A DNA stretch of 63,574 nt, the filler included, from Collodictyon triciliatum (lineage: Eukaryota): NCBI GenBank assembly GCA_043381765.1. It is 9 parts of 9 records of this genome, joined end to end, with 100 filler letters (N's around TTAATTAATTAA, not from the genome) between each part and the next. Parts side by side here need not be neighbours in the genome. Positions count along the whole stretch, not along the records: positions 8,834 to 15,029 come from JBHJMP010003305.1; 8 more parts are not named here. One strand, 5' to 3'. How positions within the stretch are numbered: position 1 is the first letter of the stretch; every line of letters starts with the position of its first letter. Shown piece after piece: positions 3,001-62,106 of the stretch. Below the pieces are notes generated by a model, which made no database searches, was not told where the DNA came from, and worked only from the letters and a program-made list of their open reading frames with translations. A program made the position numbers and the translations under genes.

Positions 3001-4560
3001 CATAATGCTCAAATATACCCTCTTCATCAAGTTTAGGATGAATTCGTCTCCATTTAATCGAACATGGCAGTGATTTACATGCATCGTCCAAAAGGCCTTT
3101 TGATTGCGACTCCTCAATGATTTTGGTGGCTCTCTCAAAGTTTCCTTCCATGACCTGTTACGTTATCCGTTCACAGATACCAGAGAAAAATATGTGAAAT
3201 GAAAAAAAAATTAGAGTCTAGTATTTTCTATACAATGCCTCATCAAAAAGATTGAAACAAACTTGTCTCATGTAATGATCGATATAATTTATATGAGATA
3301 AAGTCCGCACTAATGTATCGTAAAGGCTAGATAGAATAGGGTCCTCGAGCAATACAGTGGAGCTTTTCTGTAGAATTTGAAGAGCGTCGTATTGCCTTTG
3401 TTGCCGGAGATATTTCATGCACAGGCGTGAAGACAAATCCTGTTGGTACTACAAAACCACAACTTTGTTTATCATAATACTCATCTGATTAAAGTTGTTG
3501 AACAATAGGACATGTAAATTATTCACTACTTGGTTGTATCTTTCCAGCGAATTTTTTACAACCGAGGGCTCGATATGCCCGAACAGCTTCACAGACCAAA
3601 TAGTAAACGTTCCATTATTGCTATAATTGCTGATGCATTGAATCCTGACATATCGACATGGTGTAATCGTATTATAGTCGGTCTTAAACTTTATGTTAAA
3701 TGTCTCGACTTCGTCGTCATTACGCAGATCTAATTAAAAAAAACATGTATTATGGTCTGGCTTTTAACAAGGATTATATGCCATAAAATGAAAATAGAAA
3801 TAGCTCCAATCTCTTTGATCCAACAAAACAAAACAAAACAAAACAAAACAAAACAAAACAAAACAAAACAAAACAAAACAAAACAAAACAAAACAAAACA
3901 AAACAGGGTTATTTCATTCATTTGATTACTTGTATGAAGAATTTCTCTCATTCTGTTCAGCTCCATCCCAGCCAGTAATTTAAACTCTTTCAAACCTGAC
4001 GGATTTCCTATTCAATGATGTTTGATAAAGTTAGAGTCATTAGAATATATAGCCAGAAAATAACAAGAACCATCTATGCATGGATTTGTAATAAATAAAA
4101 ATATATTAGAAAAATTTGATAAATTATTTTTCAATGGTGACGAATAAGTGGGATACCTTTTACGACCTTTCCAAAGGATATGTATCCTAGTATCATTTGA
4201 ACAGCAGGTTGTAACCAACAAAATAAACATATTACATGGACATTCCTTTTATTTGAAACAGAGCAGATAGGCACATAAATACATAAGAATAAGTGAACTC
4301 AAGAGGACGCGAGGAAGATTAAAATAAATAAAAATAAATAAAAACACCGTACGAAGCACCGAAACGGAGTCCAATCTCAGGATTAGAAACTCGTTCGAAC
4401 CGTTTGGGGTGGAAGTCCAGCGACTTTGAAGATCCCCTGGTTTATTCACCATAATGTTTTCAGGCACGAAGCGCTCTGAATAGCTGCTGCAGGCCTGGAC
4501 CTGAAACTTCACCGGGAGAATCGAGCTTTCTTCACAAAGTTGGCACGACAAGTCCGACAT
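100..4560 (-). CDS. MKLN1: Muskelin (discoidin-LisH-CTLH-kelch), CTLH E3 ligase subunit; multi-exon, 3' end apparently cut off at window start
   Basis: Exon translations: SSYSERFVPENIMVNKPGDLQSRWTS (muskelin N domain), RLCMKYLRQ (LisH), kelch motifs PKMRGGHQMCIDS, GPSPRSCHKMCYD, PLPRFAHQFVHD, MHYLYAGNPG...RLDDLW. Lower boundary approximate. Confidence 0.88.
3824..3904. repeat. (CAAAA)n microsatellite, intronic
   Basis: Direct reading. Confidence 0.9.
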
Positions 4561-5080
4561 CGTCTCCTGATCTTCTATTTCTTGGCCTTGTGAGTGAAAT
4601 GGTGTAAAGTGTTGACTCTTTGTTTTGCTTTGTTTTGTTTTTTCTACCTCCTCTCAGTCAATCGTTGTGTGCCGATTCAGCCTCTCTGCGATCAAAAGCG
4701 CCTTGCAGATTCCTTAATTAGAATTAAAAAAAAAAAAGCAGAGGATCAAATCTGTGTGTTCCATTTATTCCACATCAAGCAATCTAAAAACAAGTTTAGA
4801 AATAGATTTGATTGCGTCGATCAAATCAGCCACAAGATTTGTTAACCTGCTCTTTGAGTTCTATGCTTTTGCCCAGCGTTGGGTCGAAGAAGCCAAGCGG
4901 ATGCTGCTAACACTAACGATTAGAGCACACGTACCCGAGTGTTAAGTAGCCAAGCCTGAGGGGATTCAAGCCTCACTTGACAAAATTGAAAGCTTTACTT
5001 CAGCCCCTGTGCGGGTTTTCCTGCACTAATTGTTTGCTCTTTGTTCGCTTGTAAACAGACAGGCTGCGATCAGAGGCTTC
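4561..5080. promoter_or_regulatory. Probable bidirectional promoter between divergent MKLN1 and DCAF13
   Basis: Head-to-head start codons at 4560 (-) and 5081 (+), ~520 bp apart; positional inference only. Confidence 0.4.
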
Positions 5081-8733: not shown

Positions 8734-8833
8734 NNNNNNNNNNNNNNNNNNNNNNNNNNNNNNNNNNNNNNNNNNNNTTAATTAATTAANNNNNNNNNNN
8801 NNNNNNNNNNNNNNNNNNNNNNNNNNNNNNNNN
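8734..8833. other. Artificial scaffold-joining linker
   Basis: N44-TTAATTAATTAA-N44 (stops in all six frames). Confidence 0.97.
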
Positions 8834-8916
<83 letters not shown>

Positions 8917-9661
8917 TAATAAAAGGGAAGAAAAAAAGGCTTCGGGCTCAAGCCATCAACTCACGGGCAGCAAGATAGGTATGAATATAGTGCTCTGTAT
9001 TAGTGTCTCTGATTCATTTATCCGTTTTTTCTTTTCCTTTTCCCATTTTCTTTTTTCTCTTTTCTTTTTCTTTTTTCTTTTATCTATTCTTTTTCTTTTT
9101 TCTTTTTTTTTTCATCGGTCTCATTCGGCCTGTAAATGGATAAACTTCATTACAAAGGTTGTGACGAACTTGGTTTTATCCCTTTCAAGGAACAACACTT
9201 TATTTGCAACGAAAGTGCACCCATATATATAGATAGCAATTTATTGCACAAACAACCATCGAATTAAATCTGGATTGACGAAAGCAGGAGTATTGATGAA
9301 TCAAGAAAGAACTTGAATAATATAATAGTATAATTAGTATACATAGTAAGGTTAAATATACTTAAAAATCTCATTCTATTCCTGTAATTAATTTATATTT
9401 TATTTTCCATTATCGTATTAAAATCCAAAATTACAAACAAGCCGTTGCATTGGCCCAGACAGAAATCAGCCCTATAAACCTGCCACCAAGCATGCATATC
9501 AAAAAAGCATACTACCCACACTTGTGGCGGTAATCATATTGTTTGGGGCCGATATGTTGACTTTAAGTCGCCATGGCTATACGGCCGTCCTTTCGAACTC
9601 GCCGAATCGGCTCTCAGCGTTTTGTCTCAAATCACTCGAATAAAAAAAAAAACCTTGTGTA

Positions 9662-11843
9662 TCTGTTTACCACAATGCGTACATTTTGAGAGTTTTGGTA
9701 GATGCTTAGTTTTACATAAATTGATTTTATGCAGTTTTTTTTAAATTGACTGTTTTACTAAAGTTTTATCAAAATTGAAAACTCGGTACTTTTCTCAAGA
9801 AAAAAGTAAAACAAAGACTTTCAGATGAAGAAAATAAAACATCTTGAGTCTGGGAATATAAAGTCTGTAAAACCACACTATCGAAATGTGAAGCCATCTC
9901 TAAAGTCGATTGTAAAGAATGCGGATGACTATGACAAAATCAACGATACAGTTTTATTGTGTCATAATTTGGTTGGGGACACTTATCTGTTTGTAAGATG
10001 TTGCATATTGAAATCAAAACCACCAACAATCGATGAAATGTGTTTTTTTTTTCTTTATTCACTTTAAAGACAGTCGGAAAAGTTTCACAAGATAGACCCG
10101 CACGTTTAAAACATCCAGAAATGAGATGATATGATGATTTTTATCTCTATGATTTTCGATTCCTTTCGTCCCGAGAAGAACGCTTTCCGTTGGTTAAACT
10201 GTCTCATGCATTACCGTACTTAAGGAAGCAAATGTTAGCAGCTTATCAGAACACCACTAAGGAACATTTTGTAAAGAGGTTACTGCGCTTTATAAATCAA
10301 AAAGTTCCTAAATATGAGAATATAACGGATACTGTTAAAAAGGCAGAGTTACGAAAGTTAAAAAAAAAGCCATCTTCAAGAAATTCGAAATACCGGAACA
10401 ATATCAAGGATGGACTAAAATGCATCTGCATCATATAATTCCCAGCGATATTGTAAAAGGTATCGAATATGACGCCAAAGTCAATCCAAAGAAGTACATC
10501 CCATGTTTGATTCACATGAATCGCATTTTTGAGGACATTGTATCCAAAAGCTTCGACCAATCTCTATAGGAACTAACAATAAACCATGTCATATTACTCT
10601 AGATACTGCATGTTTGATATATCTATTAGTCTTATCTGGAAAGTCATTATTAATGAAGAACATATCAGGATACAAAGAGACACTATGGGAAAAGTTCTTT
10701 GAAATGGAGAAGAGGGTCTTCCATCAAACAGACTACAATTTTAAATACATGATACAAACAGACGGCTTGGCGGTGTCATGATTGTTTGAAAAGAAAGGTA
10801 TTTCAAATTCAAATTCCAAATACAATCAAAAAGAAACCAAGAATATGTCTACAAAGATGAACTTTCCGAAGAGCAGTTATCTTTATTAGCGAATTTTTTT
10901 TTTAGTTGGAGTGGACGCAGGCAAGTTTAATTTGGTTTACATGGTAGACGAGACAGGTAAGAAATTACGTTACACGACACACCAAACAAGACATGATAAC
11001 AAATCTCTTTAAAATCACAGAATACTCTTGTGCGAGAAAGAAAAGAAAAGTACAAGGCTTCAGGGATATGCATGGCAGCAGGTTTACAAAGAGCTTTTTC
11101 TTTTAGTCACCTGACTTTTGAAGAGAATCAGCAGGTTGAGACATCAAGAGCATCTTTAATCGATTTAGAGACATAACTGAATAAACATAATTCATGCACG
11201 GTCGATTATGAAAAAATTCGGAAATATGTATCTATGAAATTAAGATACCCGATAGAATTATCCAGATTTTATGAACACGTAACTTTTCGAAAGATGAGAT
11301 GGAGACAGTATGTTAATACAAAAAGTAGTGAAAGTTGTTTATGGACCGAATTGAAAAGACATTTGGCAAGGATGTTATACTGGCGTATGGAGACTGGAGC
11401 AGAAAATCTCCGATGAAACATTTTACGCCAACAATCGGAAGAGTATTACGAAAAAAATACTATCCAAACGTTTTGATACCAGTTATTGTAAATGGATTAA
11501 AACCCTCCAAGATGTGCTGTAGCTGCGAAAAAGAACTGGGATATATGACACTGAAAGGAAATACAAAAAAAAGTGTATAGTTGTCTCATGTGTAAAGAAT
11601 GCATTCGCTCAGGAAGCAAACAGAGTCTATTCTTGACAAGGGACTTTGACAGCGCTAAAAATATACTCAAGAAAGTTCTTTTACTCCTTCAAAATATGCT
11701 TACACCTTTCTTTTTTAAAAAATCGGCTGTCGGGTCTCTCCTGGCGGCCTTCACCACTACACAGTCTTTGAGAAAAAAGTGGTGAGACGTTGGGTACTAG
11801 CGGACTATATTTACCAATCGAAAGATTGGAGAACACGTCCTAG
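9662..11843 (+). mobile_element. Putative non-autonomous Helitron-like element carrying Fanzor1
   Basis: Right end: 16-nt hairpin (11814-29), 10-nt spacer, CTAG (11840-43) followed by T. Left end is a guess at A|TC 9661/9662; no Rep/helicase gene seen. Confidence 0.45.
9825..11785 (+). pseudogene. Fanzor1 (eukaryotic TnpB/Cas12-like RuvC endonuclease), intronless, multiply frameshifted
   Basis: Frame-hopping translation gives colinear Fanzor1-type blocks: YRNVKPSLKSIVK..INDTVLLCHNLVGDTYLFVR; LSHALPYL..YQNTTKEHFVKRLLRFIN; HIIPSDIVKGIEYDAKVNP; KPCHITLDTA; YMIQTDGLAVS*LF (10746-10787); RuvC-I VGVDAGK (D 10914-16) + KLRYT; FRKMRWRQY; LAYGDWS; RuvC-II VIVNG (expected E is G, 11494-96); zinc finger CCSC/CKEC; RuvC-III RDFDSAKNI (D 11642-44). 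At least 4 in-frame stops and several frameshifts. Confidence 0.9.
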
Positions 11844-11860
11844 TAAAACGAAAAGAAAAT
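11720..11860 (+). ncRNA. Candidate Fanzor omegaRNA scaffold plus 3' flanking guide segment
   Basis: Stems seen directly: TCACCACT(11751-58)/AGTGGTGA(11778-85); TACTA..GGAC(11795-805)/GTCC-TAGTA(11837-45) enclosing CCAATC-GAAA-GATTGG (11814-29). Position overlapping and following the ORF 3' end fits TnpB/Fanzor guide RNAs. Limits approximate. Confidence 0.55.
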
Positions 11861-12198
11861 CGAAGGTGCCACCAATGCCAGATGGAAACGCAATCTCCAA
11901 CCTTTTCCACATTTGATGAATCATCTTGGTAAAATGTCATTCCAGCCAATCCAGAATTCTGCACTTCCTATTCCAGGACAAGAAAGCGAGTTTCCACATT
12001 AGCTGGAAAGATAACTCATCACAACCAGCACAGCAAACATCTCTTCAAACCCCAAAATTCTCACAGAGCCCCAAATTCCCTCTCCCAGCCGCAAGGGAAC
12101 AAGTTAATAGAAACCACCCGGCTCCCGATATCAAACATCGGATGGATAAATACCCTAGCCACTCCATATATGTGCGACAGTTCTTTCAAGGCACCTCA

Positions 12199-12316
12199 CA
12201 AAAACAAAAACAAAAACAAAAACAAAAACAAAAACAAAAACAAAAACAAAAACAAAAACAAAAACAAAAACAAAAACAAAAACAAAAACAAAAACAAATA
12301 CAAATACAAAAAAAAC
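12199..12316. repeat. (CAAAAA)n microsatellite between Fanzor element and Ctr gene
   Basis: Direct reading. Confidence 0.9.
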
Positions 12317-12486
12317 AAAAAACCAGAAACCCAAGGACAACAGACATTTATGGGCTGTTAGTGTGGTCGTGTGTATTTATTGGAAGGAGAGAAACCCTCT
12401 TTTCCTCACGACAACTAACCAGACTCGATCGCCACCCCAAAGAACCGCCCCCTACAAAAACATAAGGAGACTCTCGCAAACGCACT

Positions 12487-13291
12487 ATGACTAACGCCAT
12501 CGATCTGGTCAGAACCGCAGCCATGAGCGCCGCACCCGCCCTGCTTCTCTGCCTCATCGCAGCCACTGTGCTCATCGCCGCCCGCGCCCATCCGCATCCG
12601 CACGCTGCCCAGTACGACCACAACCACAACCACAACCACTTCTATGGCCACAACCACAACCACAACCACAACCACAACCACAACCACAACAACCAACAAG
12701 CAGCTGCTCTCTCCAAACTCAATCCCGCCGAAACTATGCGCCTTGTCCAACGGGCCTTCCGTGTTGCCCACAGCATGGACTCCAACAAAGCGGCCTCATT
12801 GAACCCTGAGCAGGTTCCGTACTGTCATCACTAACACCATCATCATTATCATTATCATTATTATCACTATCATTATCATTATTATCATCGTCATCGTCAT
12901 CGTCATCATTATCCCTATCACTATCATCATCTCCCGCAACACTCACGCATCACAGATGTTTGAGCTCTTGCAAGAGTCTGCCTGCCAGCCCCACTGCCCA
13001 GTCTGCGGAATGACTGTGACCTCTGCAAAGAACCGCCTCCTCATCAAGAACAACCAGTACCTGTACTTCTGCTCAGGCGGCTGTCGCGATACTGCTCTCC
13101 AGACCCCGGATGCCTATGTGCTGGCAAACAACACTCTGCCCATCCCCGAGTGCTTCCTTGCCCAGGAGCATCACTGCCCAGTCTGCAACATGGACACGAC
13201 TGTCTCCCCCTCGACCAAGCACATCCAATGGGCTCACGGTTCGACTCCCACTCATATTACACTTTGTATCACCACCACCATCATCACCACC

Positions 13292-13322
<31 letters not shown>

Positions 13323-14702
13323 CCGTCATCATCACCACCATCATCACCATCATCACCACCTCAACCCAGGTCAGCGCTCCTTCGTCTGCGACATGTCGGT
13401 CGACCACAGCGAAAGCATGCGGCAGGAGCTTTCCCGCTACGTCAGCGCCCTCCCCAGCGAGTGCCAGTCCGTGCAGTGCCCCGTGTGCAAAATGTCCATC
13501 ACGCCGGGCCCGTCCTCGCCGACCGTCGAGTTTGCCAACGGCCAGGTCCTCAGCACGTGCTCCAGCGGGTGCCAGACAAAGCTGCTGCAGACGCCGGAGC
13601 GCTACCTGGACCCTGCCGCAGACGCCCAGCGCATCCCACCCTGTGACGACGGCAAGAACATCGCGTGCCCGGCGTGCAGCGACCGCTTCCTGGCCCGCCC
13701 CACCACCCCGGCCCTGGCGTTCCTGGGCGGCCAGCGCATCTACACGTGCTCCCAGGCGGACGGCTCCTCCGACCTGCCGCTCATCCAGGCCGACATCCAG
13801 CGCTTCATCACCACAGACATCCCACCCATCGACGATGACGACGATGACGGTGGCGACATCGACCCGCCCACAGGCTCGCGCTGCCCGGTCTGCGGCATGG
13901 ACCTGCCCTCCGACCCCGTCTACCAGGGCCTCAACTACGGCCAAGCCGTCTACTTCTGCTCCACAGGCTGCAAGGACAGCTTTGTGGCCGACCCCACCCG
14001 CTACTTTGGAACCAGCGGCGGCGGCGGAGCGGGCGGCCACAGCATGGCCATGTACTTTATCAGCTCCACAAGCGCGACCATTCTCTTCAAGGAGTGGGAA
14101 GTCTCCTCCGCCAGTGGCTATGCCGCCTCCGTCGTTGCCGTCTTTGCCATGTGTCTTGCCCACGAGCTCATCGCCGCCCTGCGCCATGTCCTCTACCTCA
14201 GGGTGAAGGAGAACAGGCCCCAGAAGATTGTCTATGCATCGACGGGTGCTCTTGGGTAAGCCTGATTTATGCTACGTGATATTTATTTTTCTATTCTTCT
14301 GTATCAAGTTGTGCGTTTCCAAACAGGCATGATTTCTTCTTCTTCTTTTTCTCTCCCAGCACCCAATCTTCCCTCCTTGACCTCCCTGGGAGGGCACAGC
14401 TGCACATTGGCACACCCGCATTCATTGGCTTCAATCTCTCGTTTATCTAACCCATCCATTCTGACATGTGTAGCACCCTGTCCTCGTTCATCGTGCACAA
14501 CGGCCGTGTCGTGCTCGCCATTCTCTACACAATCTCGTCCATCACGTCGTTGTGCCTAATGTTGATTGCCATGACTTTCAACACAGGACTCTTTCTTACC
14601 ATTGCCGCAGGCATGGGAACTGGCTGGTACCTCTTTGGCTTCAACCGAGGCCCGGCTTCCTCAGACACTTGCTGTGCTGATTACAACGAAGTCATTGGCT
14701 AA
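12487..14702 (+). CDS. Ctr/SLC31 copper transporter with signal peptide, His/Asn tract and five tandem YHS/TRASH-like domains (~574 aa)
   Basis: Exons 12487-12813, 12956-13238, 13370-14255, 14474-14702 (GT-AG, 1725 nt, open frame; alternative ATG 12523). Ctr hallmarks: HSMAMYF..ILFKEW before TM1, MLIAMTFN (MxxxM) in TM2, GMGTG (GxxxG) in TM3. Five CPxC repeats, e.g. CPVCGM..YFCSTGCKDSFVADPTRYF. Confidence 0.88.
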
Positions 14703-14942
14703 GCATCGCCGCTCTGCGCTCCAGTACCTTTCATAACTTTCTTTCATGCGGAGCCAAACCTGCCCTCTCGAGTGCTTGTGCACCTCACGCTTGCGAAATT
14801 GTCCTCTGCCTTCCAAGCAATCAACAACACATGCAATAAAACAAAACAAAACAAAACGAAACAAAACAAAATCAAATTACCAGAATCAAAGAGAACTTAA
14901 TGATCGGCACATAACCCAAGTGCAATAAGTGGTCTGTCGTGA

Positions 14943-14980
<38 letters not shown>

Positions 14981-15029
14981 CAGGGACAAAACGCCGGGGA
15001 CAAGCAGCAGCCACCCCCCCCCCCCCCCC

Positions 15030-15129
15030 NNNNNNNNNNNNNNNNNNNNNNNNNNNNNNNNNNNNNNNNNNNNTTAATTAATTAANNNNNNNNNNNNNNN
15101 NNNNNNNNNNNNNNNNNNNNNNNNNNNNN
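15030..15129. other. Artificial scaffold-joining linker
   Basis: N44-TTAATTAATTAA-N44. Confidence 0.97.
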
Positions 15130-15162
15130 TAATTTAATAAATAAGTGAATCCTTTGATGCAG

Positions 15163-17546
15163 GTTTACGAAACCGAGTATGACCTGCTGCTGAATCCAGA
15201 TATCAACTCAAAAGCTCACACACAGTGGTTCTTTTTTTCTATATCAAACATGAGGAAAAACGTAGAATACAAGTTTAATATCATAAACCTTGAAAAGCCC
15301 AATAGCCAGTTTAATTTTGGGATGATGCCAGTCATGTACTCCACGCAAAATGCAATTGAATTAGATACGAGTTGGGTTAGGACAGGGTTTGACATATGCT
15401 ACTTTCCAAACCGATATTTGAAGGAGCGAAAGGGCAAATTCCAATCTTGGTATACGTTCTCATTCAAAGTTGTGTTCCCGCACGACAATGATTTAGTCTA
15501 TATGGCCTACCACTATCCATATTCATACTCTGATCTCCAGCGCCATCTCAGTGAAATTGAGGTTTCTTGATTTGAGTTTCCGTCATGTTTCATATCCTTT
15601 AGCACCTTTACAATATAATATCGATGACCACAAACCACGTTTTCTAAGTTTCTTTTCTTTTTGACCCCTCAGATAACTCCATATATTTCAAACATTTACC
15701 GAAGACAAACATTATGTCACACAATCGGAGGAAACGCATGCGATTTAATTACAATCACAAATTTAGACGGTACAGAATTGGTATGACCATCGTTTTCATA
15801 TACATATTACCTTGGCCTCAACTTGTTTTATTCTATTGGGATTGTACCTGGAGTGAAAGAAATAAAAACAAAAACAAAAACAAAAACAAAAACAAAAACA
15901 AAAACAAAAACAAAAACAAAAACAAAAACAAAAACAAAAACAAAAACAAAAACAAAAACAAAACCGAACCAAAGAAAACATCAATTCATTTTTTCTGGTT
16001 GACCTAACAACAATATATTCAGAACTCTTTTTTTTTTTTTTTTTAAGATTAGTCACCTGGTTTTCTACGAAATAGGAAATAATGAGTCGGAAAGTAATAA
16101 TCGTAACTGCTAGAGTTCACCCTGGAGAAACGAACAGCAGCTGGATAATGCAAGGCATTCTGAACTTTTTGGTATCTGATACTGATTACGCAAGGTAATG
16201 TCCTCAAAATTATAATTTCATGAGAGATTCTATTCTCGTTATTCATTGAGGTTGTTTCTCTCAAGTATGTAAGTGTAAAGTTAACACGAAGTGAATGTCG
16301 GAGGCAACCTCAATCTATAAACATTACTATTGCAAACACTCCCAGAGAGCTGCGAGAAAGATTTGTATTCAAAATAGTTCCTATGTTGAATCCCGACGGT
16401 GTCATCAATGGGAATCATCGCTGCTCCTTATCTGGATTGGATTTGAATAGACAATGGAGCAATCCCTCTAAATACATTACACCAACAATTTATTACACAA
16501 AGTAACCTTCTTAAGCTCACAACAACGTTATCTTTTACTTAATGAGAATCATAGATCTTATGAATCCTGTATGTAAATTTGATTCATTCACATAGGTTGT
16601 TAATGAAAAGGCTCAGAATGGAAAAGAGAGAGATATACATGTACTTCGACTTGCATGGTCACAGTCGAAAAAAATACGTTTTCATGTTTGGTTGTCACAA
16701 TGACCGAAATGATAGACTTCGAAATATGGAGAAGATATTCCCGTGGCTGCTCTCTAAAAGAACACCCATGTTTTCCATGAGAGAGTGTGATTTTGTCTTG
16801 CAAGAATCCAAGGCATCAACGGGTAGAATAGCTTTGTGGAGAGAGTTTTGCATTACCTGCTGCTACACGATGGAATCAACGTACTGCGGAACCACTACCA
16901 CACACTTTAACACTCGCCATTTGGAGGAAATGGGTCATAATTTGGTTCAAAACATATTAGATTATGATAACTTGACTGAGGTATGTCGAACATATGGCCT
17001 TTTTTCCTTCTTTTTTTTTTTCTATCACGGCAGAACAGAAAAATTAATGCCTCAAGCACTCAATTAGCATCATGATTCGAATATTGTGTGACTTTTTTTT
17101 TTAACCAGTTTGCCCCTTCCGATTTTTTCTGACAAAACAACAACACTAAACAATTATGCAGTCTGGTTTCCAGACAAATCTCGGAGAGATACGCATGTGG
17201 ATGAGCACTCACAAAGCCGAGTTAGGCAATACGTTCGTTGGCACCCCAGCAAATGCACAGCCTATGTTAAACCCTTCCCACACCCAACACGCAAACGGTG
17301 GACATAGTTTCCATTTTTATGGAGTTTCAGGGGAGGCACAATCAGATGAAGATGACGCAGCAGATGATGATAAAGGGTGCGTACAAATATTATTTTAAGT
17401 ATGTTGAGTAATTAGTCTGTGTAAACGTTTTTAAATGCAGGATGGGTTTTCGATTGGTTGACCTGCCTACTCATGAACGAGATAAACGTAGCAGAAGAAA
17501 GAAAGCTAAAAGAAAACAGAAACTAAAGCCTTATGGCAAGAAGTAG
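15163..17546 (+). CDS. AGTPBP1: Cytosolic carboxypeptidase (M14D, CCP1/Nna1-like tubulin deglutamylase); 5'-truncated, multi-exon
   Basis: [67 protein letters not shown]; stop TAG 17544-46. The specific paralog assignment is less certain than the family. Confidence 0.85.
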
Positions 17547-18249: not shown

Positions 18250-18462
18250 TTAGCCTTTACACGAGATGTAAGTCAGGGTGACATGCAATCCTTGAATAAC
18301 TTGATCCGTTATAATCAGTAATCTCGGTTGCTGCTGCTGCTGTTGCTGCTCTCTTTCTTTCCTTCTCTGCTTTTTAGTCTTCTTGACTATGATTTGTTGT
18401 TGCTGTTGTTGCTGCTGCTCTCTTTCTTTCCTTCTCTGCTTTTTAGTCTTCTTGACTATGAT

Positions 18463-18521
<59 letters not shown>

Positions 18522-18559
18522 GCTGTTGTTGTTGTTGTTGTTGTTGTTGCTGTTGTTGC

Positions 18560-18620
<61 letters not shown>

Positions 18621-20856
18621 GCTGTTGTTGTTGCTGTTGCTGTTGTTGTTGTTGTTTTTGCTGTTGTTGTTTTTGTTGTTGTTTTTGTTGTTGTTGTTTT
18701 TGTTGTTGTTGTTTTTGTTGTTGTTTTTGTTGTTGTTTTTGTTGCTGTTGCTGTTGTGTTTTGTTATCAGAACGAGAGCGAGGTTTGGTGGGAGGGCCTT
18801 GTGGTGGGGGGATATGTGGTGGAGGGCCTTGTGGAGGAGGGCCTTGTGGAGGAGGGTCTTGTGGAGGGGGGATATGTGGTGGAGGGCCTTGTGGAGGAGG
18901 GTCTTGTGGTGGGGGTGGCGGATTTGTCATGACAACATCGGATAATTCGAACACTCGACCTCTTCTACGTGCGTCCTGGATAAGGTCTTTGAGAGCGTCA
19001 CTTCCTTCTGAGAGAGTTTCGATGCATCCAACCATGATGAATGAAAATTGGGCCCTAGTGAGAGAAACATTGAGTCTACGCGAATCTCTCAGAAATCCAA
19101 CTTTCCGTTTTACATTCGCTCTCGTAAAAGAAAGAATAACAGTGTGGAACTCTTTTCCTTGCGAACTGTCAACGGTTTGAGCTAATTTTGGCAAGGATTT
19201 TTCGTGTAAGGCTTCATTAATTTTGACAACTTGATATCTGTAATAGCATAGTACCTTAACTTTGTCTTCAAGTTTACCAGTATACAAATCAAGTCGAGAG
19301 AGAATGCCAATAATTTTTACGATTGCCTTCACTTCCGATTTGTTGAATATCTTTTCTTGATGTAATTTTTCTATTCCATTGACATTAATGAAGGAGTATG
19401 GTGCCATCCATATTTCATGCAGCGCTCTAGTTGGGTTTTCTCTGGATTCAACGTATTCACTATCGAAAAGTTGTCCATCGTAAATGTATTCTCTTACCCA
19501 TTGACTTATTTCGGGGTCCATACGGTATTGCTCGTTTAAGGTCGAGTGAGGCTGGTTTAGATTTTCGATCAAGCGACTCATCAAAGACCTTTGATAGTTT
19601 TTACTTATGCACAAATCAGAATGGGCCAGAGGCGGTAATTGTTTTGTATCCCCCACAAACATCACTTTTGGGGGACACCTTTCAAGTGGAACAAGACTCT
19701 CAGCCTCACATACACGCCCAGCCTCATCTACGATAATAGCATCAACATGCCTGTTCCGCAGCATCCCAGAGCCCGAAGTACAAACTGTGCAGAAAACAAT
19801 ATCTGCATTATCTAATTTCTCGATTAATCGGTCAGTCTCTTTCTTGCTTCGAATATCATAAGTTGCAATAAAAATGGATCTGAGATTGGACTTTTCTGGC
19901 TTATGTTCAATGGAAGCCAAAATGTATATTTTGTGATTGGTCTCCAACTCCAAGTATTTTTCAGCCAGCAATCTCACGCCTTCATTGTGATGAACACATA
20001 TAATGAGCTGGGCATTTCTCGTTGAAACTAATGCACTTGCGACGTTAACAATCATAGTCGACTTTCCGGTTCCAGGGGGACCTTCGACAAGATGGATTCC
20101 CTGTCCCATCCTATAAAATGTGGCAGCGGCTCTTTGTTGAGAGTCATTTAAGCGACAGAAAAGAGCCACTTCTTCCTGGGTTAGTGGTTCGAATTCTCTC
20201 TGGCTTGTACCGGCCAATAATTCTGCCAGCCACCTTAGAGGAATGCCGTTTGTGCAAGTGGAATATGCTCTTTCAGCCATTACATAGCTAGAAACAGTAA
20301 AGGCATAAAAAATTTTTTCATTATCGCATATGAGAATTCTTTCGGCCATTTCGGCGTTTTTGAATGAGATAGTAACTCGGTTCTTTTCATTTTTTCTCGA
20401 TCGAACGACACCCAAAAGAAGAGAGTAGTTGTTCCTCTTATCGTGTTTCACCCTGGCATTTTCTGTCATGACAACGACGAAACTATATGGTTTGATGCTT
20501 TTTGGATCGTCGAATTTTAAAGAGGTCTCAAAATTAAATAAGGCCAAATTTCCAAATCTCTTTCCGGCGTTTACTTCTTTGACATAAAATAGGCTCTCGA
20601 ATGGGGTTTCTTCGTCGAGAACATCCAGAGTAGCGATACCTTGTTGCAGTTGCCGGCGGGTTTCTTCGATAATACAGTTCAAAAACGAATTGAAATAAGA
20701 CACAGGTTCTGTATAAACATCAGAAATGGCCTGTGTTTCACGAATCGGTTCGTAGGGCCGTCTAATAAAATCGATATCCCAATACGTAACAAAAGCGTCC
20801 AGGTTTCTGGGATACCAATCCTGAAGATCGGAATATATTGTCTCTTGGTCACTCAT
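18250..20856 (-). CDS. Upf1/Sen1-like superfamily 1 helicase (AAA_11/AAA_12) with Pro-rich and polyQ C-terminal tail
   Basis: 868-aa ORF: LNDSQQRA, GPPGTGKS, IIVDEAG, VGDTKQLPP, EQYRMDPEIS, TVDSSQGKE, RRLNVSLTRA. A short terminal exon near 17990-18156 is possible. Confidence 0.9.
18463..18756 (-). repeat. Coding (CAA/CAG)n polyglutamine tract
   Basis: (TTG)n on + strand within the helicase ORF. Confidence 0.9.
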
Positions 20857-21923: not shown

Positions 21924-22023
21924 NNNNNNNNNNNNNNNNNNNNNNNNNNNNNNNNNNNNNNNNNNNNTTAATTAATTAANNNNNNNNNNNNNNNNNNNNN
22001 NNNNNNNNNNNNNNNNNNNNNNN
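21924..22023. other. Artificial scaffold-joining linker
   Basis: N44-TTAATTAATTAA-N44. Confidence 0.97.
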
Positions 22024-22683: not shown

Positions 22684-25600
22684 ATGGTTGTCTCTTCAGT
22701 TACTGAAAAAACTGATGGAGAAGGCTCGACAGTCTACAACAGGGAGCCCAGCAGCAAAAAAGAGGGGCGAGACCTAATGCGCATGTCCCTGTCAAGCTCC
22801 ATCACGGGCGGGCTGGACGTGGCAGACCTTTCGTCTGTGTGGAACAGAAATGCCGGAGGAGACAACGACGCGCTCATTACCGAAGAGATAAAGGAAAAGT
22901 ATCGCATGGACAAGTGGCTCTGCTTCCTGGTTCTCCTCTTACTTTTTTTCTACAATTTGATTCAAGAACATCTGTTCTATACGTTTTGTTCCAGATTTCG
23001 TCCTCCTTATCTCTCCTTTTTTCCCCCTCTACCATCACTCTTCTCTCTTGTTCAGTCTCTTTCCTCCCCACAGTCTTTGGCTTACATAGAAACATGTCAA
23101 AAAAAACGGACGTACTGCGATTTAAAATATAAAAAATCAATACTATCTATGTATAGGACCAAGGCGTGGAAGAGGATTTTTTCGAGAAGTACTTTTACAA
23201 CTCAATCAAGACACACCGCGCATTCTGCTTGATTGCCCCGGGAATCTACGCTTTGTTTATTCTCCTCTCAATCTTCGGATACAATTTTCCTGTCCTGATT
23301 ATGCATTTCATTCTGGGAGGGGCCACTCTGGGAGTGTACTTTTACCTTAAAACAAAGTGAGGAAATTCTTTCATACTCGAATCTTTTCTGTAGTACTCCT
23401 TTCATTCTCTATCATGTTTTTTTATTTATCTTCCTTTTCTTTTTCTTTCCTTTTCTTTTCCTTTCCTTAATCTTTTTCATTTTCATTTTCATTTTCATTT
23501 TTATTTTCATTTTCATTTCTTTTTTCCTTTGAAACCATATTTGCATTATCAACTCAACGTGAAATCACCCAGGAATGCAAGGGATTACCAGCTACACCTC
23601 ATTTGTGGTATTGTTTTTTACCATGCCATCGGAGTTGGTATCGAAAGGCCTTTTGGAAGTAATGATATAGAACCTAGCTATTTGCAGATCAACAACGGAA
23701 GATCATTTGCAGTCTTTTACATATTCGTTCTGTACAGTGGAATCATGTCGCTTCGAATCACTGTTAAGGTGAGACCATTTGCTAAACCATTATTTTTTTT
23801 ATTATATTTCACAATGTGCACTTTCAAAGCAAACATCGCACTACTTTGAATCGAATAAAGGAAAAAAATAAAAAAGTGACTTTGAGTATATCTTGACTTT
23901 CTGATTAGATTATAGCGAAGATGTGGATTGGGATAATGATAAATTTCTTTGTCATCATCTCACTTCTTCGCTTAACTGAGCCGGAAGAGTATGCCGACTG
24001 TACTTTCTTCCTTGGGATTGTAACTATTTCCCTAGGCACCGCAGCTTATTCCACGGAGCTCGGAAACAGAAACCAAGAGGTTTGCGAGAATCACTTTCCA
24101 CGCTGTTCACCATGTTTATCTCCCTCAAAATCCATTTTAGACCTTAATACACTGTGCTTTTTTTAAAAAAAAATCCGGGTAACTATTGCCATATCCTCGT
24201 TCAAATTCTCTGTTCTATTTTTAACATGGGTTTTAGATGAGACGAGCAGCAGTCCTCCGCCACACTGAAGAGGTTGCTAAAGAGAAGATGATTACGGTGA
24301 GAAGCTCCTGGATAACTCATAGATTCTGATACTTGAATATTACCTCACAAATATAAAAAAAATTCTTCAACGTTCCAGGAGGTGGGTCTAAAAGTATACA
24401 TATATAGGAGAAACTTCTTCTGAACATTCTTCCAACCAAGATTGCCCGTCGACTAATGGACGGAGAGGAGGTTTTATGAAACACTTTTTCCTTCTATACT
24501 GCCTAGTGGTTGCCAAATCAACGCTCACGCACTATCCTCTCGCCCCTATAATTATTTTTTTTCCCTGACGTATGAGATACGCGATGAAACCCTATAAATA
24601 GTAACACATTCTCTTATTATAAGGTAATTGCAGACCAATATGAAAACGTCACAGTGTTGTTTGCAGACTTAGTGGGATGGACGGATATTGCGCGTTCGAT
24701 GAGCCCAGTTGAAAGCATCGAGCTTTTGAACGAGATAGTTTCCAATATCGACCGCCTTACATTGATGTACAAGATGGAAAAAATCAAGACTATCGGGGAC
24801 GGTAAGCTCCACCTTGTAACCCAGTTCATCATAATTTGGTCATTCGAAAACCCTCTTAAAGAAAAAAAGAAAAAGAAAAGAAAAGTCACACATTCATGGT
24901 CGGGTTTTAGGCTATCTTGTTGCCTGTGGCCTCCCAGAGCCTATGGAAGCGGCTTCCAGCTGTAAAGTAGTCGCCAACTTCGCGTTAGATGTAATCGACA
25001 TTGTGAGTAGAGTCATCAGATTGGTGCAGACTCACTTTCATTCAAAACACATCAATCCACTAATATTTAAAAACGATGTAAAAAGCTCCACACACTCTCC
25101 AAAAGCAAGAAAAGGACATTCCAGATGACCATTGGAATGCATACGGGTTCGGTCGTAGCTGGTGTTATAGGTTTGTTGAAACTTTTTTTTTGTTCTAACA
25201 TACATTCCCTAGATAAAAAAAGGGGAAGATTTTATCCCAATTACGAATAGAGGCCAATCAATTATACATTTTGCATGGTTTATCCATTTTCAAATCTCTT
25301 TGGCTCGGATTCCTCTCTTCATTTACTTTTCCTTTTTTAATATCATGTATCAACCGTGTCACAGGGAAAACAAAATTCCTGTACGACCTATGGGGTGATT
25401 CCGTTAACACAGGTAATTCACAGCATTGATATGCTTAATTTTTAAGAAAGCCATCGTGCAACAAATTCCATTCAGAAAAATATTAATCAAGTGTATCCTT
25501 CAGCAACTAAGACGCAGTGTATTTTACATTACATTAGCAAGTCGCATGCAGTCACATGGAGACACAAACCGAGTCCATGTGACGTCTCGTGTATATGAGC

Positions 25601-30753: not shown

Positions 30754-30853
30754 NNNNNNNNNNNNNNNNNNNNNNNNNNNNNNNNNNNNNNNNNNNNTTA
30801 ATTAATTAANNNNNNNNNNNNNNNNNNNNNNNNNNNNNNNNNNNNNNNNNNNN
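30754..30853. other. Artificial scaffold-joining linker
   Basis: N44-TTAATTAATTAA-N44. Confidence 0.97.
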
Positions 30854-32729: not shown

Positions 32730-33644
32730 GTTGGTTTTTCTTCTGAACGTTCTGTGTTTTTTTNNNNNNNNNNNNNNNNNNNNNNNNNNNNNNNNNNNNN
32801 NNNNNNNNNNNNNNNNNNNNNNNNNNNNNNNNNNNNNNNNNNNNNNNNNNNNNNNNNNNNNNNNNNNNNNNNNNNNNNNNNNNNNNNNNNNNNNNNNNNN
32901 NNNNNNNNNNNNNNNNNNNNNNNNNNNNNNNNNNNNNNNNNNNNNNNNNNNNNNNNNNNNNNNNNNNNNNNNNNNNNNNNNNNNNNNNNNNNNNNNNNNN
33001 NNNNNNNNNNNNNNNNNNNNNNNNNNNNNNNNNNNNNNNNNNNNNNNNNNNNNNNNNNNNNNNNNNNNNNNNNNNNNNNNNNNNNNNNNNNNNNNNNNNN
33101 NNNNNNNNNNNNNNNNNNNNNNNNNNNNNNNNNNNNNNNNNNNNNNNNNNNNNNNNNNNNNNNNNNNNNNNNNNNNNNNNNNNNNNNNNNNNNNNNNNNN
33201 NNNNNNNNNNNNNNNNNNNNNNNNNNNNNNNNNNNNNNNNNNNNNNNNNNNNNNNNNNNNNNNNNNNNNNNNNNNNNNNNNNNNNNNNNNNNNNNNNNNN
33301 NNNNNNNNNNNNNNNNNNNNNNNNNNNNNNNNNNNNNNNNNNNNNNNNNNNNNNNNNNNNNNNNNNNNNNNNNNNNNNNNNNNNNNNNNNNNNNNNNNNN
33401 NNNNNAAAAAAATAATGGTCCTGTGGAGAATGGGGATGCACGTTCTTTTTTTTCTCCCTCTTGCCAAATCACATATAATAAAAAGTTGATTACTCATCAT
33501 CATTTGGCAGCTGCCCAAGTTCGTTCATAGAGGAGTCTGACAAGTCCAATGTCACGAAAAAAAAAGAACACTTCCCTTTTATTACATCACACTGCTTTCT
33601 TTAGCCTCCAACCATACGTAGCGTGGCAGTTTAAGAATTATTAT

Positions 33645-36600
33645 TTATTCGTTATCGTCGCTCTCTTCCTCCTCTCCGTCCTCTTCTTCGTCTTCACCTT
33701 CTTCATTTTCATTCATGCCATCGTCTTCGTCGTCTTCATCATCTCCTTCACCTGCGTTTTCCTCTTCTTCGTCTTCATCATTTCCATCATTTTCGCCTTC
33801 GTTTTCATCTTTGTCTTCATCATTTCCATCATTTTCACCTGCGTTTTCCTCTTCTTCGTCTTCATTGTCATCTTCATTTTCGCCTTCATTTTCCTCTTCT
33901 TCGTCTTCATCATTTCCATCATTTTCACCTGCGTTTTCATCTTCGTCTTCATCATTTCCATCATTTTCACCTGCGTTTTCCTCTTCTTCGTCTTCATTTT
34001 CGCCTTCATTTTCCTCTTCTTCGTCTTCATCATCTTCAATGTTTCCATCCTCGTCATCATCTTCGTCATCAACATCAACTTCTGTTTGACTTTCATTCAT
34101 ACCATCGTCATCATCATCATCATCATCATCATTTTTCTCTTCGTAATCATTTCCATCATCATCATCGTCATCATCATCATCACCATCAAGAACTTCTATT
34201 TGACTTCCATTCATACCATCGTATTCAGTTACATCTTCACCTTCGCTGTCTTCATCATTTCCTCCATTTTCACCGCCATTTGCTTGTGCATCCTCTGCTT
34301 CGCTGACCTCCCCACCCGATTCCTCAACTTGTTCTTCGTCGCTACCATTCTTCACTTCATCTGTCCCTGCTTTTGTGGAATTAATTAAACAATACGGTTG
34401 TTAGTTCAACACATATATGAAGTGAAGTCATCACTTTCTTTTGTGTCTTCACGATTAGGTCTACCTTCATCGGCAGCTATCTCCAGTGAGATTTGCTTTT
34501 TTGCCTTCTCAACATTTCTCAGAGCAATCTAATATATGTAAGTACAACATGTGTCACAGGGTTGGGAGAGAAAGCAAAAGCAAAAGCAAAAGCAAAAGCA
34601 AAAAAACACGTGCAGGAAGAAAGCTTATCGACTGCATGCCTGATTCAGGGCAAGTATGATTCGCCCTTGCAGACGCATCACTTTCTTTGATGTCTTCACA
34701 CGATAGCGAAGCATTTCGGTGATTTCCTGTGTCGCTTTTTCAACTAGGTCATGGTGTGGTGTACTGGATGATAGGAACGACAGAAAAACAATGTAAGGAT
34801 GTGTCACAACGTATTGGTGAGTACAGACNNNNNNNNNNNNNNNNNNNNNNNNNNNNNNNNNNNNNNNNNNNNNNNNNNNNNNNNNNNNNNNNNNNNNNNN
34901 NNNNNNNNNNNNNNNNNNNNNNNNNNNNNNNNNNNNNNNNNNNNNNNNNNNNNNNNNNNNNNNNNNNNNNNNNNNNNNNNNNNNNNNNNNNNNNNNNNNN
35001 NNNNNNNNNNNNNNNNNNNNNNNNNNNNNNNNNNNNNNNNNNNNNNNNNNNNNNNNNNNNNNNNNNNNNNNNNNNNNNNNNNNNNNNNNNNNNNNNNNNN
35101 NNNNNNNNNNNNNNNNNNNNNNNNNNNNNNNNNNNNNNNNNNNNNNNNNNNNNNNNNNNNNNNNNNNNNNNNNNNNNNNNNNNNNNNNNNNNNNNNNNNN
35201 NNNNNNNNNNNNNNNNNNNNNNNNNNNNNNNNNNNNNNNNNNNNNNNNNNNNNNNNNNNNNNNNNNNNNNNNNNNNNNNNNNNNNNNNNNNNNNNNNNNN
35301 NNNNNNNNNNNNNNNNNNNNNNNNNNNNNNNNNNNNNNNNNNNNNNNNNNNNNNNNNNNNNNNNNNNNNNNNNNNNNNNNNNNNNNNNNNNNNNNNNNNN
35401 NNNNNNNNNNNNNNNNNNNNNNNNNNNNNNNNNNNNNNNNNNNNNNTAAACAATATTGTGCATAATTACATGAAAATTGTCCTGCTCTGAAAATTTCATG
35501 CAATACGGGATGAGATCTTCTGGAGACTCCTTGGCCAGGGAAAGAGTTTTCTTTTTTGGCGCCGTTGAAATGCGTGAAACAATCTTTTTGAGCTACAACA
35601 ACAATAACAACAGTTAATGAAATAAGCCATTTGGCAGCGTTATACGATGTAATTCTGCATTTCTGTTTTCTTCGTATTCTAATTCTTTTTTCTTCCAAAA
35701 GGCCAGAGAACTCACTTTCTCTGTCGTAGAGGCGATAGATGCCGCTTCCTTCTTTTCGATCGGCAAATTTTCGATTTTGCGCTTATTCTGTGTGGCTGTC
35801 TCTTTCGCTGTTGGAGTGCTCGTTTCAGTTGTTTTCATAGTCCCTGTCGTATCAGACTCTGCGTTTTTCGCTAGCTGTGTCAATAACTCGGGCTCACTTG
35901 ATTCGGGCTCCGCTATTAGTTTCAATGGAAATAAATGTGTAATATTGCGAGCAAAAAAATAAAATACAATATGAATCGGATATGATTACTCCCTCTCCCC
36001 TCGTCAGTGGTAGGCTTATAAAATAAAAAGGAGCAAAGATACATGAAAATCTTTCTTTCATTCATTGGAGAAATGAAGGAAACACACATACGTTTCTTTT
36101 CGGATTTAGCTTCGGATGCTGGCGTGAGTATCTATGTTACGGACAGGTCACCAACAAACAGGAACGCATTTTAACCAAATTTTACACTCAAACGAATCAT
36201 AATGTTTTGTCTATGGTATACCAGTTACTATCTTTCATCGATGATATTACTTTATTTTACGAATCTTATTTACATTTTGACTGCTCAAAATCAGCGGGAG
36301 TATTACAGGGTTCCCTTTGGAAATAATAGGTACCGTTTGGATCAACAGGTCAGTTTTCTAGAGTAATATAATTTCGAAAAAAATACCTTAACTAAAAAAA
36401 AAAAAACAACAACGATAGATATAAAGGATAGGATATCTGATATAATTCTCAATTAGCATGGGAAAAATAACAGTGAGTATAAAATGAGATAAATTAGAGA
36501 TACACACAATGATTTCCAGAGTTGGATCATTGCTTGTCATGAAGATAATGCTCTCATCGGTGGCATGGGAGCAAAGAATCATGGGTGCTTTGATAGTAGT

Positions 36601-57233: not shown

Positions 57234-57333
57234 NNNNNNNNNNNNNNNNNNNNNNNNNNNNNNNNNNNNNNNNNNNNTTAATTAATTAANNNNNNNNNNN
57301 NNNNNNNNNNNNNNNNNNNNNNNNNNNNNNNNN
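57234..57333. other. Artificial scaffold-joining linker
   Basis: N44-TTAATTAATTAA-N44. Confidence 0.97.
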
Positions 57334-62006: not shown

Positions 62007-62106
62007 NNNNNNNNNNNNNNNNNNNNNNNNNNNNNNNNNNNNNNNNNNNNTTAATTAATTAANNNNNNNNNNNNNNNNNNNNNNNNNNNNNNNNNNNNNN
62101 NNNNNN
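62007..62106. other. Artificial scaffold-joining linker
   Basis: N44-TTAATTAATTAA-N44. Confidence 0.97.

Follow-up and report, generated by a model that had tools for sequence, protein, structure and literature searches.

The 63.6-kb window analysed here (63,574 nucleotides, nt) comes from the genome of Collodictyon triciliatum (assembly GCA_043381765.1). It carries, at positions 12487-14702 of the plus strand, a gene for a Ctr-type protein with a long, cysteine-rich N-terminal part. Ctr proteins are the main copper entry route of eukaryotic cells. The protein starts with a predicted signal peptide and a (His-Asn)n stretch. Five modules of about 45 amino acids (aa) with likeness to YHS and TRASH domains follow, and a glycine hinge, an MxM motif and the Ctr module complete it towards the C-terminus.

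Gene structure

The start codon at 12487 is the first ATG after an upstream stop codon, and the TAA at 14700-14702 closes a joined coding sequence of 1725 nt that is translated into 574 aa with a single terminal stop. The gene comprises four exons and three introns, all with GT..AG borders (Table 1). Introns 1 and 2 must be removed, because the first brings an in-frame stop at 12832-12834 when left unspliced and the length of the second is not a multiple of three. Intron 2 contains no AG ahead of its end suited as an alternative acceptor.

The splicing was judged solely by collinearity with the relative P0005, a transcript-derived protein with a complete open reading frame (ORF) of 560 aa from a EukProt transcript assembly, which was retrieved with an E-value of 3e-119 in a search of 1.84 billion representatives. 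The spliced protein and P0005 aligned end to end, with 298 of 559 aligned positions identical (53%). The alignment was free of indels at junctions 1 and 2. By junction 3, in the variable loop between helices 1 and 2, P0005 is five residues shorter, and this junction is the least certain of the three splice calls. The first-pass annotation, made from the sequence alone, had proposed the same gene span with three introns, and the intron borders, the 574-aa frame and the collinearity with P0005 bear this out. It had also placed repeats 3 to 5 and the first membrane helix on one exon and all five modules ahead of Ctr in one gene. Both proposals agree with our results: exon 3 is a single open frame of 294 aa on which Pfam placed YHS as well as Ctr, and the fusion is conserved in relatives.

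A (CACAAC)n microsatellite at 12620-12690 encodes the (His-Asn)n stretch of exon 1, the ATC/ATT repeat of intron 1 covers 12835-12945 and the CAC/CAT repeat of intron 2 covers 13256-13365. If the 3' part of intron 2 were translated in one frame with exon 3, a long poly-His tract would result.

The Ctr module

The Pfam Ctr model PF04145 (curated cut-off 25.3 bits) matched exon 3 with 38.2 bits over profile positions 1-56, and exon 4 with 34.4 bits over positions 108-151 of 151. The P0005 protein reached 62.1 bits over positions 1-151. Hydropathy peaks were located at residues 456-474, 512-530 and 525-543, in addition to the signal-peptide-like start. The motifs MLIAM (528-532) and GMGTG (545-549), separated by 12 residues, form an exact MxxxM-x12-GxxxG, which is given as the Ctr signature of helices 2 and 3 in a review of algal copper uptake (PMC9502191). 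An MxM motif (429-431) stands right ahead of helix 1, separated from module 5 by a glycine hinge of about 11 residues, and a Cys-Cys pair (565-566) lies in the C-terminal tail. All sequence features tested assign the gene to the Ctr family.

The N-terminal region and its five modules

Hydropathy revealed a signal-peptide-like hydrophobic segment at residues 12-30, followed by the small residues A-R-A at 31-33. The (His-Asn)n stretch occupies residues 34-68 (nt 12586-12690), with 11 HxH motifs in residues 35-67. The first-pass annotation had contrasted the Cys modules with the Met/His motifs of characterised Ctr ectodomains. This contrast did not hold, as the protein retains both the HxH motifs and the MxM next to helix 1.

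A CP[VA]C motif opens each module, at residues 123, 183, 240, 303 and 375, and the first module extends over residues 123-164. Modules 1, 3 and 5 contain four Cys each in the arrangement C-x2-C ... C-x3-C, with gaps of 21, 23 and 21 residues. The original description of TRASH reportedly gave the motif C-x2-C-x19-22-C-x3-C. Module 2 has three Cys and a His at position +6 from the third (CDMSVDH, five residues between), and in the relatives a His lies three to five residues past the third Cys. The observation of the first-pass annotation that the second CxxxC is kept in repeats 1, 3 and 5 and absent from 2 and 4 was thus correct, but the site of module 2 is not simply lost, as a His offers itself as fourth ligand.

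The modules were compared with the Pfam YHS model PF04945 (curated cut-off 30.3 bits). Module 5 passed with 35.7 bits alone and 44.0 bits in the context of exon 3. Modules 1 and 3 covered nearly the full profile with 18.9 bits (E 0.0015) and 16.9 bits, below the cut-off. The scan gave no match for module 4 or for module 2, the latter represented by the P0005 copy, the window copy being split by an intron. Matches to the Pfam model TRASH_HVO_1752_C stayed below its cut-off of 27 bits, with scores of 16.3 and 14.2, and a sequence search of the PDB returned L24e as sole match with an E-value of 0.33.

Against a reference of 80 bacterial YHS segments, sampled from 140 that had been cut from matches without Ctr, hhalign gave probabilities of 99.2, 92.0, 99.1, 11.7 and 99.4% for modules 1 to 5. 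Comparisons between modules gave 98.3% for 2 against 5, 96.2% for 4 against 5, 94.7% for 4 against 3 and 95.5% for 2 against 4 (48 columns). Column-shuffle controls accompanied four hhalign comparisons, and in each of them none of 40 shuffles scored as high as the observed alignment; the likeness of the repeats exceeds chance. Only profile comparison identifies modules 2 and 4 as copies, which have diverged from the others. Membership in YHS/TRASH can be assigned firmly to module 5, by profile comparison to modules 1 to 3 and through its sister modules only to module 4. The earlier expectation that the repeats score as YHS-like therefore stands for module 5 by Pfam and for modules 1 to 3 by hhalign, but not for module 4 when set against bacterial YHS.

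Between a module and the one at the same position in P0005, identity ranges over 50-75%, versus 21-39% to the neighbouring modules. Module 5 is the best conserved with 75% identity, compared to 50-56% for the others. Judged by these identities, the five-module array is old. A recent tandem duplication was considered and rejected, the DNA repeats in the gene being confined to intron microsatellites and short motif matches.

Relatives and conservation of the ligands

Relatives were taken from the best 150 of 643 representatives with E<=0.001, and Ctr was located in them by phmmer with the Ctr part of the window protein. Eight of these 150 fuse one to five modules to Ctr, with confirmation by Pfam within the 50 that were scanned, so that the suspicion of the first-pass annotation that similar fusions exist in other protists was well founded. 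Three of the Ctr-bearing relatives derive from EukProt transcript assemblies and one is entered at JGI as 'YHS domain-containing protein'; P0005 and P0006 carry stored Pfam labels for both YHS and Ctr. The membrane-proximal module is found in all eight Ctr-bearing relatives and keeps the full set of four ligands in 8 of 9 proteins, the window protein included. Of the 24 modules in these nine proteins, 8 have Cys as the fourth ligand, 13 have His and the remaining 3 have neither. As His cannot replace a disulfide partner, this exchange argues for a metal site rather than a disulfide.

The other matches were mainly bacterial multi-YHS proteins and Cu-ATPase fragments. Also among them were eukaryote-looking proteins of two to four similar modules without Ctr (P0016, P0019, P0036, P0050, P0053, P0095, P0110, P0113, P0119 and P0149) that share the core [ST]-P-x-[LV]-x-F-x-x-G-Q-x-[LI]-[YF]-F. 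Some of them begin with a segment that resembles a signal peptide, for example P0019 and P0036. The latter two also switch between a Cys-poor and a Cys-rich type of module in a way that resembles modules 1 to 4 of the window protein. A word-based search with residues 150-294 of exon 3, using 'near' lengths, found nothing, and the ESM Atlas held no usable match for exon 3. For P0006 the sole lead in the ESM Atlas, at 0.80 and under the level that counts, was an oomycete Ctr+HMA cluster.

Structure predictions

An AlphaFold2 (AF2) model of P0005 was computed from a 12-row alignment that included the window exons. Its mean predicted local distance difference test score (pLDDT) was 62, with about 90 for modules 3 and 4, 69-91 for module 5 and 85-94 for three long membrane helices. 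Foldseek ranked Ctr1 first among PDB entries (6m97 and 6m98, probability 1.00, E 0.018 and 0.021), followed by L24e with its TRASH fold (about 40 columns, root mean square deviation 1.5-2.9, probability 0.98-1.00, E>=0.16); phenol hydroxylase and the TRASH domain of ZMYM5 were also listed. For window exon 3, the AF2 model averaged a pLDDT of 64; modules 3, 4 and 5 lay at 66-87, and each showed a beta-beta-helix. Its best Foldseek matches were L24e and the YHS-carrying toluene/phenol hydroxylases, all with E >0.09.

Three copies of residues 360-560 of P0005, that is, of the relative and not of the window protein, were predicted together. The trimer score was 0.71 against 0.00 for the best control, with a contact agreement between runs of at least 62% and a partner pLDDT of at least 67. 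Of 30 proteins whose solved structures are pairs of one chain, 21 reached the mark applied to this score, and none of 23 solved as single chains did so. Confident contacts involved the helices and the segment preceding them, not module 5. The trimer expected by the first-pass annotation thus found agreement in the relative, but the result may reflect likeness to the solved Ctr1 trimers and is not proof.

Comparison with known systems

The protein shares with the Ctr/COPT/SLC31 family (Ctr1, PDB 6m97/6m98) the three predicted helices with MxxxM-x12-GxxxG, the Met motif before helix 1, the His-rich N-terminus, the Cys motif in the C-terminal tail, a score above the PF04145 cut-off and, in its relative, the predicted trimer. 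It differs in its putatively outward part of about 395 aa after the signal peptide with five folded Cys-rich modules; characterised Ctr members have a short, mostly unstructured Met/His-rich tail (PMC9502191).

The literature already describes Ctr proteins with folded Cys-rich domains at the N-terminus, the CTRA-CTR proteins Chlamydomonas CTR1 and CTR2 and Dictyostelium P80 (bioRxiv 10.1101/2023.10.19.563170). The CTRA domains occur in one or more copies, are proposed to serve copper acquisition and have soluble stand-alone versions such as CTR3. The same preprint lists five other annotated types of N-terminal extension on Ctr proteins and an unannotated N-terminal domain in protist Ctr proteins (e.g. 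of Albugo candida; stand-alone form Cre05.g236039) that is unrelated to CTRA. Like CTRA-CTR, the window protein has its Cys-rich domains N-terminal to Ctr, and stand-alone module proteins such as P0019 and P0036 are among its matches; the module proteins without Ctr may be the stand-alone proteins of that preprint. Unlike CTRA, the modules of the window protein are YHS/TRASH-like by profile and fold, a distinction from CTRA that is drawn by description only. The main text of the preprint contains no mention of YHS or TRASH, and a full-text literature search found no paper linking Ctr with either. The first-pass annotation had regarded the uptake architecture as uncharacterised. Within the literature searched this holds for the combination of Ctr with YHS/TRASH, but not for the concept of folded Cys-rich domains on Ctr.

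The modules in turn resemble bacterial and archaeal YHS (PF04945) and TRASH domains of Cu-ATPases, adenylyl cyclases, hydroxylases and L24e in their length of about 45 aa, the pattern [D/C]-x2-C ... C-x3-C, the core G-[QK]-x-[YF]-[YF]-F-C-S, the frequent tandem copies and the vicinity to copper transporters. The ligand set of YHS is described as one Asp or Cys plus three Cys, and bacterial YHS as cytosolic and mostly Asp-initial, D-P-V-C-G-M (PMC4626032). In contrast, the first ligand in the window protein is Cys, the fourth is often His in the family, the modules are predicted to be non-cytosolic and their partner is a channel, not a pump.

Proposed function

We consider it probable that the protein is a trimeric Ctr copper(I) importer equipped with an outward-facing array for the capture and relay of copper. 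The signal peptide would send the long N-terminal part across the membrane, to face the outside or a lumen. There the modules, with Cys3-Cys or Cys3-His ligand sets and a degenerate module 4, would together with the His tail bind ambient copper and keep it near the pore. The module next to the membrane would hand copper to MxM and from there to the MxxxM filter, and the C-terminal Cys-Cys would pass it on inside the cell. We prefer this reading because the signal peptide and the Ctr topology would place the modules outside the cytosol, because the module nearest to the pore is the most conserved and is joined to MxM by the glycine hinge, and because YHS domains accompany bacterial copper transporters and one YHS domain confers copper activation. 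Cu-ATPases contain YHS domains, and Cu2+ activates a YHS-bearing adenylyl cyclase (PMC4626032). The antenna of 15 modules suggested in the first-pass annotation is plausible by analogy with the known topology and trimer of Ctr and from the predicted trimer of the relative.

Several points weigh against a role of the modules in copper capture. Cys4 and Cys3His sites in the TRASH/L24e-like fold are typically structural zinc sites. With its three Cys, module 4 is short of a fourth ligand, and at 11.7% by hhalign it has no match to the bacterial YHS profile; only module 5 reaches the curated YHS threshold of Pfam. In the AF2 model of P0005 residues 1-209 remained below a pLDDT of 50, and every Foldseek E-value exceeded 0.001. 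The free thiols of the modules would be at risk of oxidation in an oxidising compartment. The metal in L24e is Cd2+, the YHS domain of toluene-4-hydroxylase crystallised without metal and YHS is described as a cytosolic domain (PMC4626032). Because loss of the soluble CTRA protein CTR3 gave no phenotype in Chlamydomonas (bioRxiv 10.1101/2023.10.19.563170), accessory Cys-rich domains may be dispensable. To these points are added the location of the gene on an unplaced contig of 6.2 kb (window 8834-15029) and its composition of 61% G+C, with a G+C content at third codon positions (GC3) of 0.80 that exceeds most other ORFs of the window.

It is unlikely, in our judgement, that the modules serve as knots held by structural zinc (or by disulfides), building a rigid stalk or a surface for docking, and take no part in binding the transported copper, which the His tail and MxM would then catch in the manner of ordinary Ctr proteins. 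The docked partner might be a component of the wall, a cupric reductase or a copper carrier that is secreted. The ligand sets and the L24e-like fold do match zinc ribbons, the classical His-rich and MxM motifs are retained, modules 3 and 4 of P0005 are predicted as one confident unit and the metal-free YHS of toluene-4-hydroxylase (PMC4626032) fits this role as well. However, YHS recurs specifically beside copper transporters, both in bacteria, with Cu-ATPases among our matches, and in the Ctr-fusion family. Moreover, a spacer needs neither the complete ligand set of the membrane-proximal module nor its position close to MxM.

Another alternative places the protein in an internal membrane and not at the cell surface. 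Signal peptide and N-out topology would suit a lumen equally well, and the lumen-facing modules of a Ctr in a food vacuole, lysosome or contractile vacuole might salvage copper released by digestion, or might gate the channel while buffering or sensing the copper of the lumen. The Dictyostelium protein P80 is endosomal. This amoebozoan P80 is the CTRA-CTR protein named in the preprint (bioRxiv 10.1101/2023.10.19.563170), and Ctr proteins act in vacuolar membranes too (PMC9502191). Nevertheless, the Cys-rich-domain Ctr proteins of Chlamydomonas reside at the plasma membrane (bioRxiv 10.1101/2023.10.19.563170), and no sequence feature pointed to an internal membrane, although no search was aimed at sorting motifs; we hold such a location to be distinctly improbable. 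A fusion artefact, either a mis-joined or contaminant contig or two adjacent genes wrongly spliced, is very improbable: it could appeal to the short joined contigs of the window, the deviating GC3 and the homopolymer runs at the contig end, but YHS and Ctr matches share one uninterrupted exon, the transcript-derived P0005 shows the identical full architecture, seven further relatives fuse modules to Ctr, a second ORF of the window has a similar GC3, the flanking microsatellites recur on other contigs and a prokaryotic relative was not found among the genome contigs searched.

A bolder version of the capture-and-relay reading appears doubtful to us. It would see in the array of prokaryote-type YHS/TRASH metal sites (Cys3-Cys or Cys3-His) on the outward face of Ctr, with up to five sites per chain and 15 per trimer, a distinct uptake device of some protists that captures and relays copper by thiolates, in which the alternation of full (1, 3, 5) and altered (2, 4) modules is functional and not the result of decay. 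If true, such a thiolate array could strip copper from strong organic complexes or store it at the pore.

To our knowledge, the collection of copper at the outward end of Ctr at very low free copper is known only for short Met/His tails and partly for algal CTRA. A Ctr protein with an ordered, folded thiolate array would, if the capture-and-relay reading is true, represent a second, independent solution for copper collection. YHS/TRASH domains would then gain a clear transport partner for measuring metal specificity; so far, the copper dependence of YHS comes from one cyclase study (PMC4626032). If the modules prove structural, the finding reduces to a note on domain architecture.

Genomic setting

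The window consists of short contigs chained by N44-TTAATTAATTAA-N44 linkers and is no continuous stretch of a chromosome. Because separate contigs are joined, genes that flank a linker are no true neighbours.

Table 1 Features of the Ctr gene and assembly features of the window (positions in nt of the window)
Feature	Position	Strand	Description
Exon 1	12487..12813	+	Start codon, signal-peptide-like segment, (His-Asn)n stretch, linker; layout matches P0005
Intron 1	12814..12955	+	142 nt, GT..AG, mostly ATC/ATT microsatellite
Exon 2	12956..13238	+	Module 1 (12995-13120) and first half of module 2 (from 13175)
Intron 2	13239..13369	+	131 nt, GT..AG, (CAC/CAT)n microsatellite; interrupts module 2 inside a Gly codon
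Exon 3	13370..14255	+	Rest of module 2, modules 3-5, Gly hinge, HSMAM, Ctr helix 1
Exon 3, end of module 2	13443	+	
Exon 3, module 3	13477-13608	+	
Exon 3, module 4	13666-13809	+	Followed by Asp-rich linker
Exon 3, module 5	13882-14007	+	
Exon 3, HSMAM	from 14038	+	
Exon 3, helix 1	~14101-14181	+	
Intron 3	14256..14473	+	218 nt, GT..AG; in the loop separating Ctr helices 1 and 2
Exon 4	14474..14702	+	Ctr helices 2 and 3, C-terminal CC (14670-14675), TAA stop
Exon 4, MxxxM	14559-14573	+	
Exon 4, GxxxG	14610-14624	+	
Linkers between contigs	8734-8833, 15030-15129, 21924-22023, 30754-30853, 39580-39679, 48407-48506, 57234-57333, 62007-62106		
Larger N gaps	32764-33405, 34829-35446, 45755-45954		

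The DNA of the window is AT-rich (about 35% G+C) and dense in microsatellites. Among eight other ORFs, those at 18250-20856 and 15145-15570 included, GC3 was 0.36-0.52 in seven and 0.83 in the TPR ORF at 38977-39426; genes of high GC3 thus exist in the assembly, and its codon usage looks bimodal. The composition of the Ctr gene was considered as a hint of transfer or contamination, but this second ORF of high GC3 leaves that reading unsupported. The flanks of the Ctr gene contain (AAAAC)n-type microsatellites that were also seen on other contigs of the window. A search of prokaryotic genome contigs for relatives of exon 3 returned 319 pattern matches, none of which was confirmed, and a prokaryotic contaminant is therefore unlikely. 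We regard the gene as native while granting a small chance of an error in the assembly.

The contig ends at 14946-15029 with an A34 run about 245 nt past the stop codon, preceded by AATAAA and followed by a C16 run; this end could be a genomic homopolymer, or an artefact of the assembly or of cDNA origin. Directly upstream of the Ctr gene lie short, broken, AT-rich ORFs (9810-11785, plus strand), one of which shows a D-W-S-R ... C-x2-C pattern that we take to resemble transposon nucleases. The identification of these ORFs as transposases from likeness by eye was rejected, as six of the seven scanned gave no Pfam match at E<=0.01. The seventh had a single weak, sub-threshold match to a telomerase RNA-binding domain.

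On other contigs, an intron-less ORF of 868 aa (18250-20856, minus strand) encodes a superfamily-1 helicase (AAA_11 E 5e-35, AAA_12 E 3e-44) whose C-terminus extends into a long tail with Pro-rich and poly-Gln repeats. Exon-sized ORFs matched the N-terminus of Muskelin (4249-4653), the N-terminal domain of cytosolic carboxypeptidase (15145-15570), the catalytic domain of adenylate/guanylate cyclases (24588-24965) and, in the ORF of high GC3 at 38977-39426, TPR repeats.

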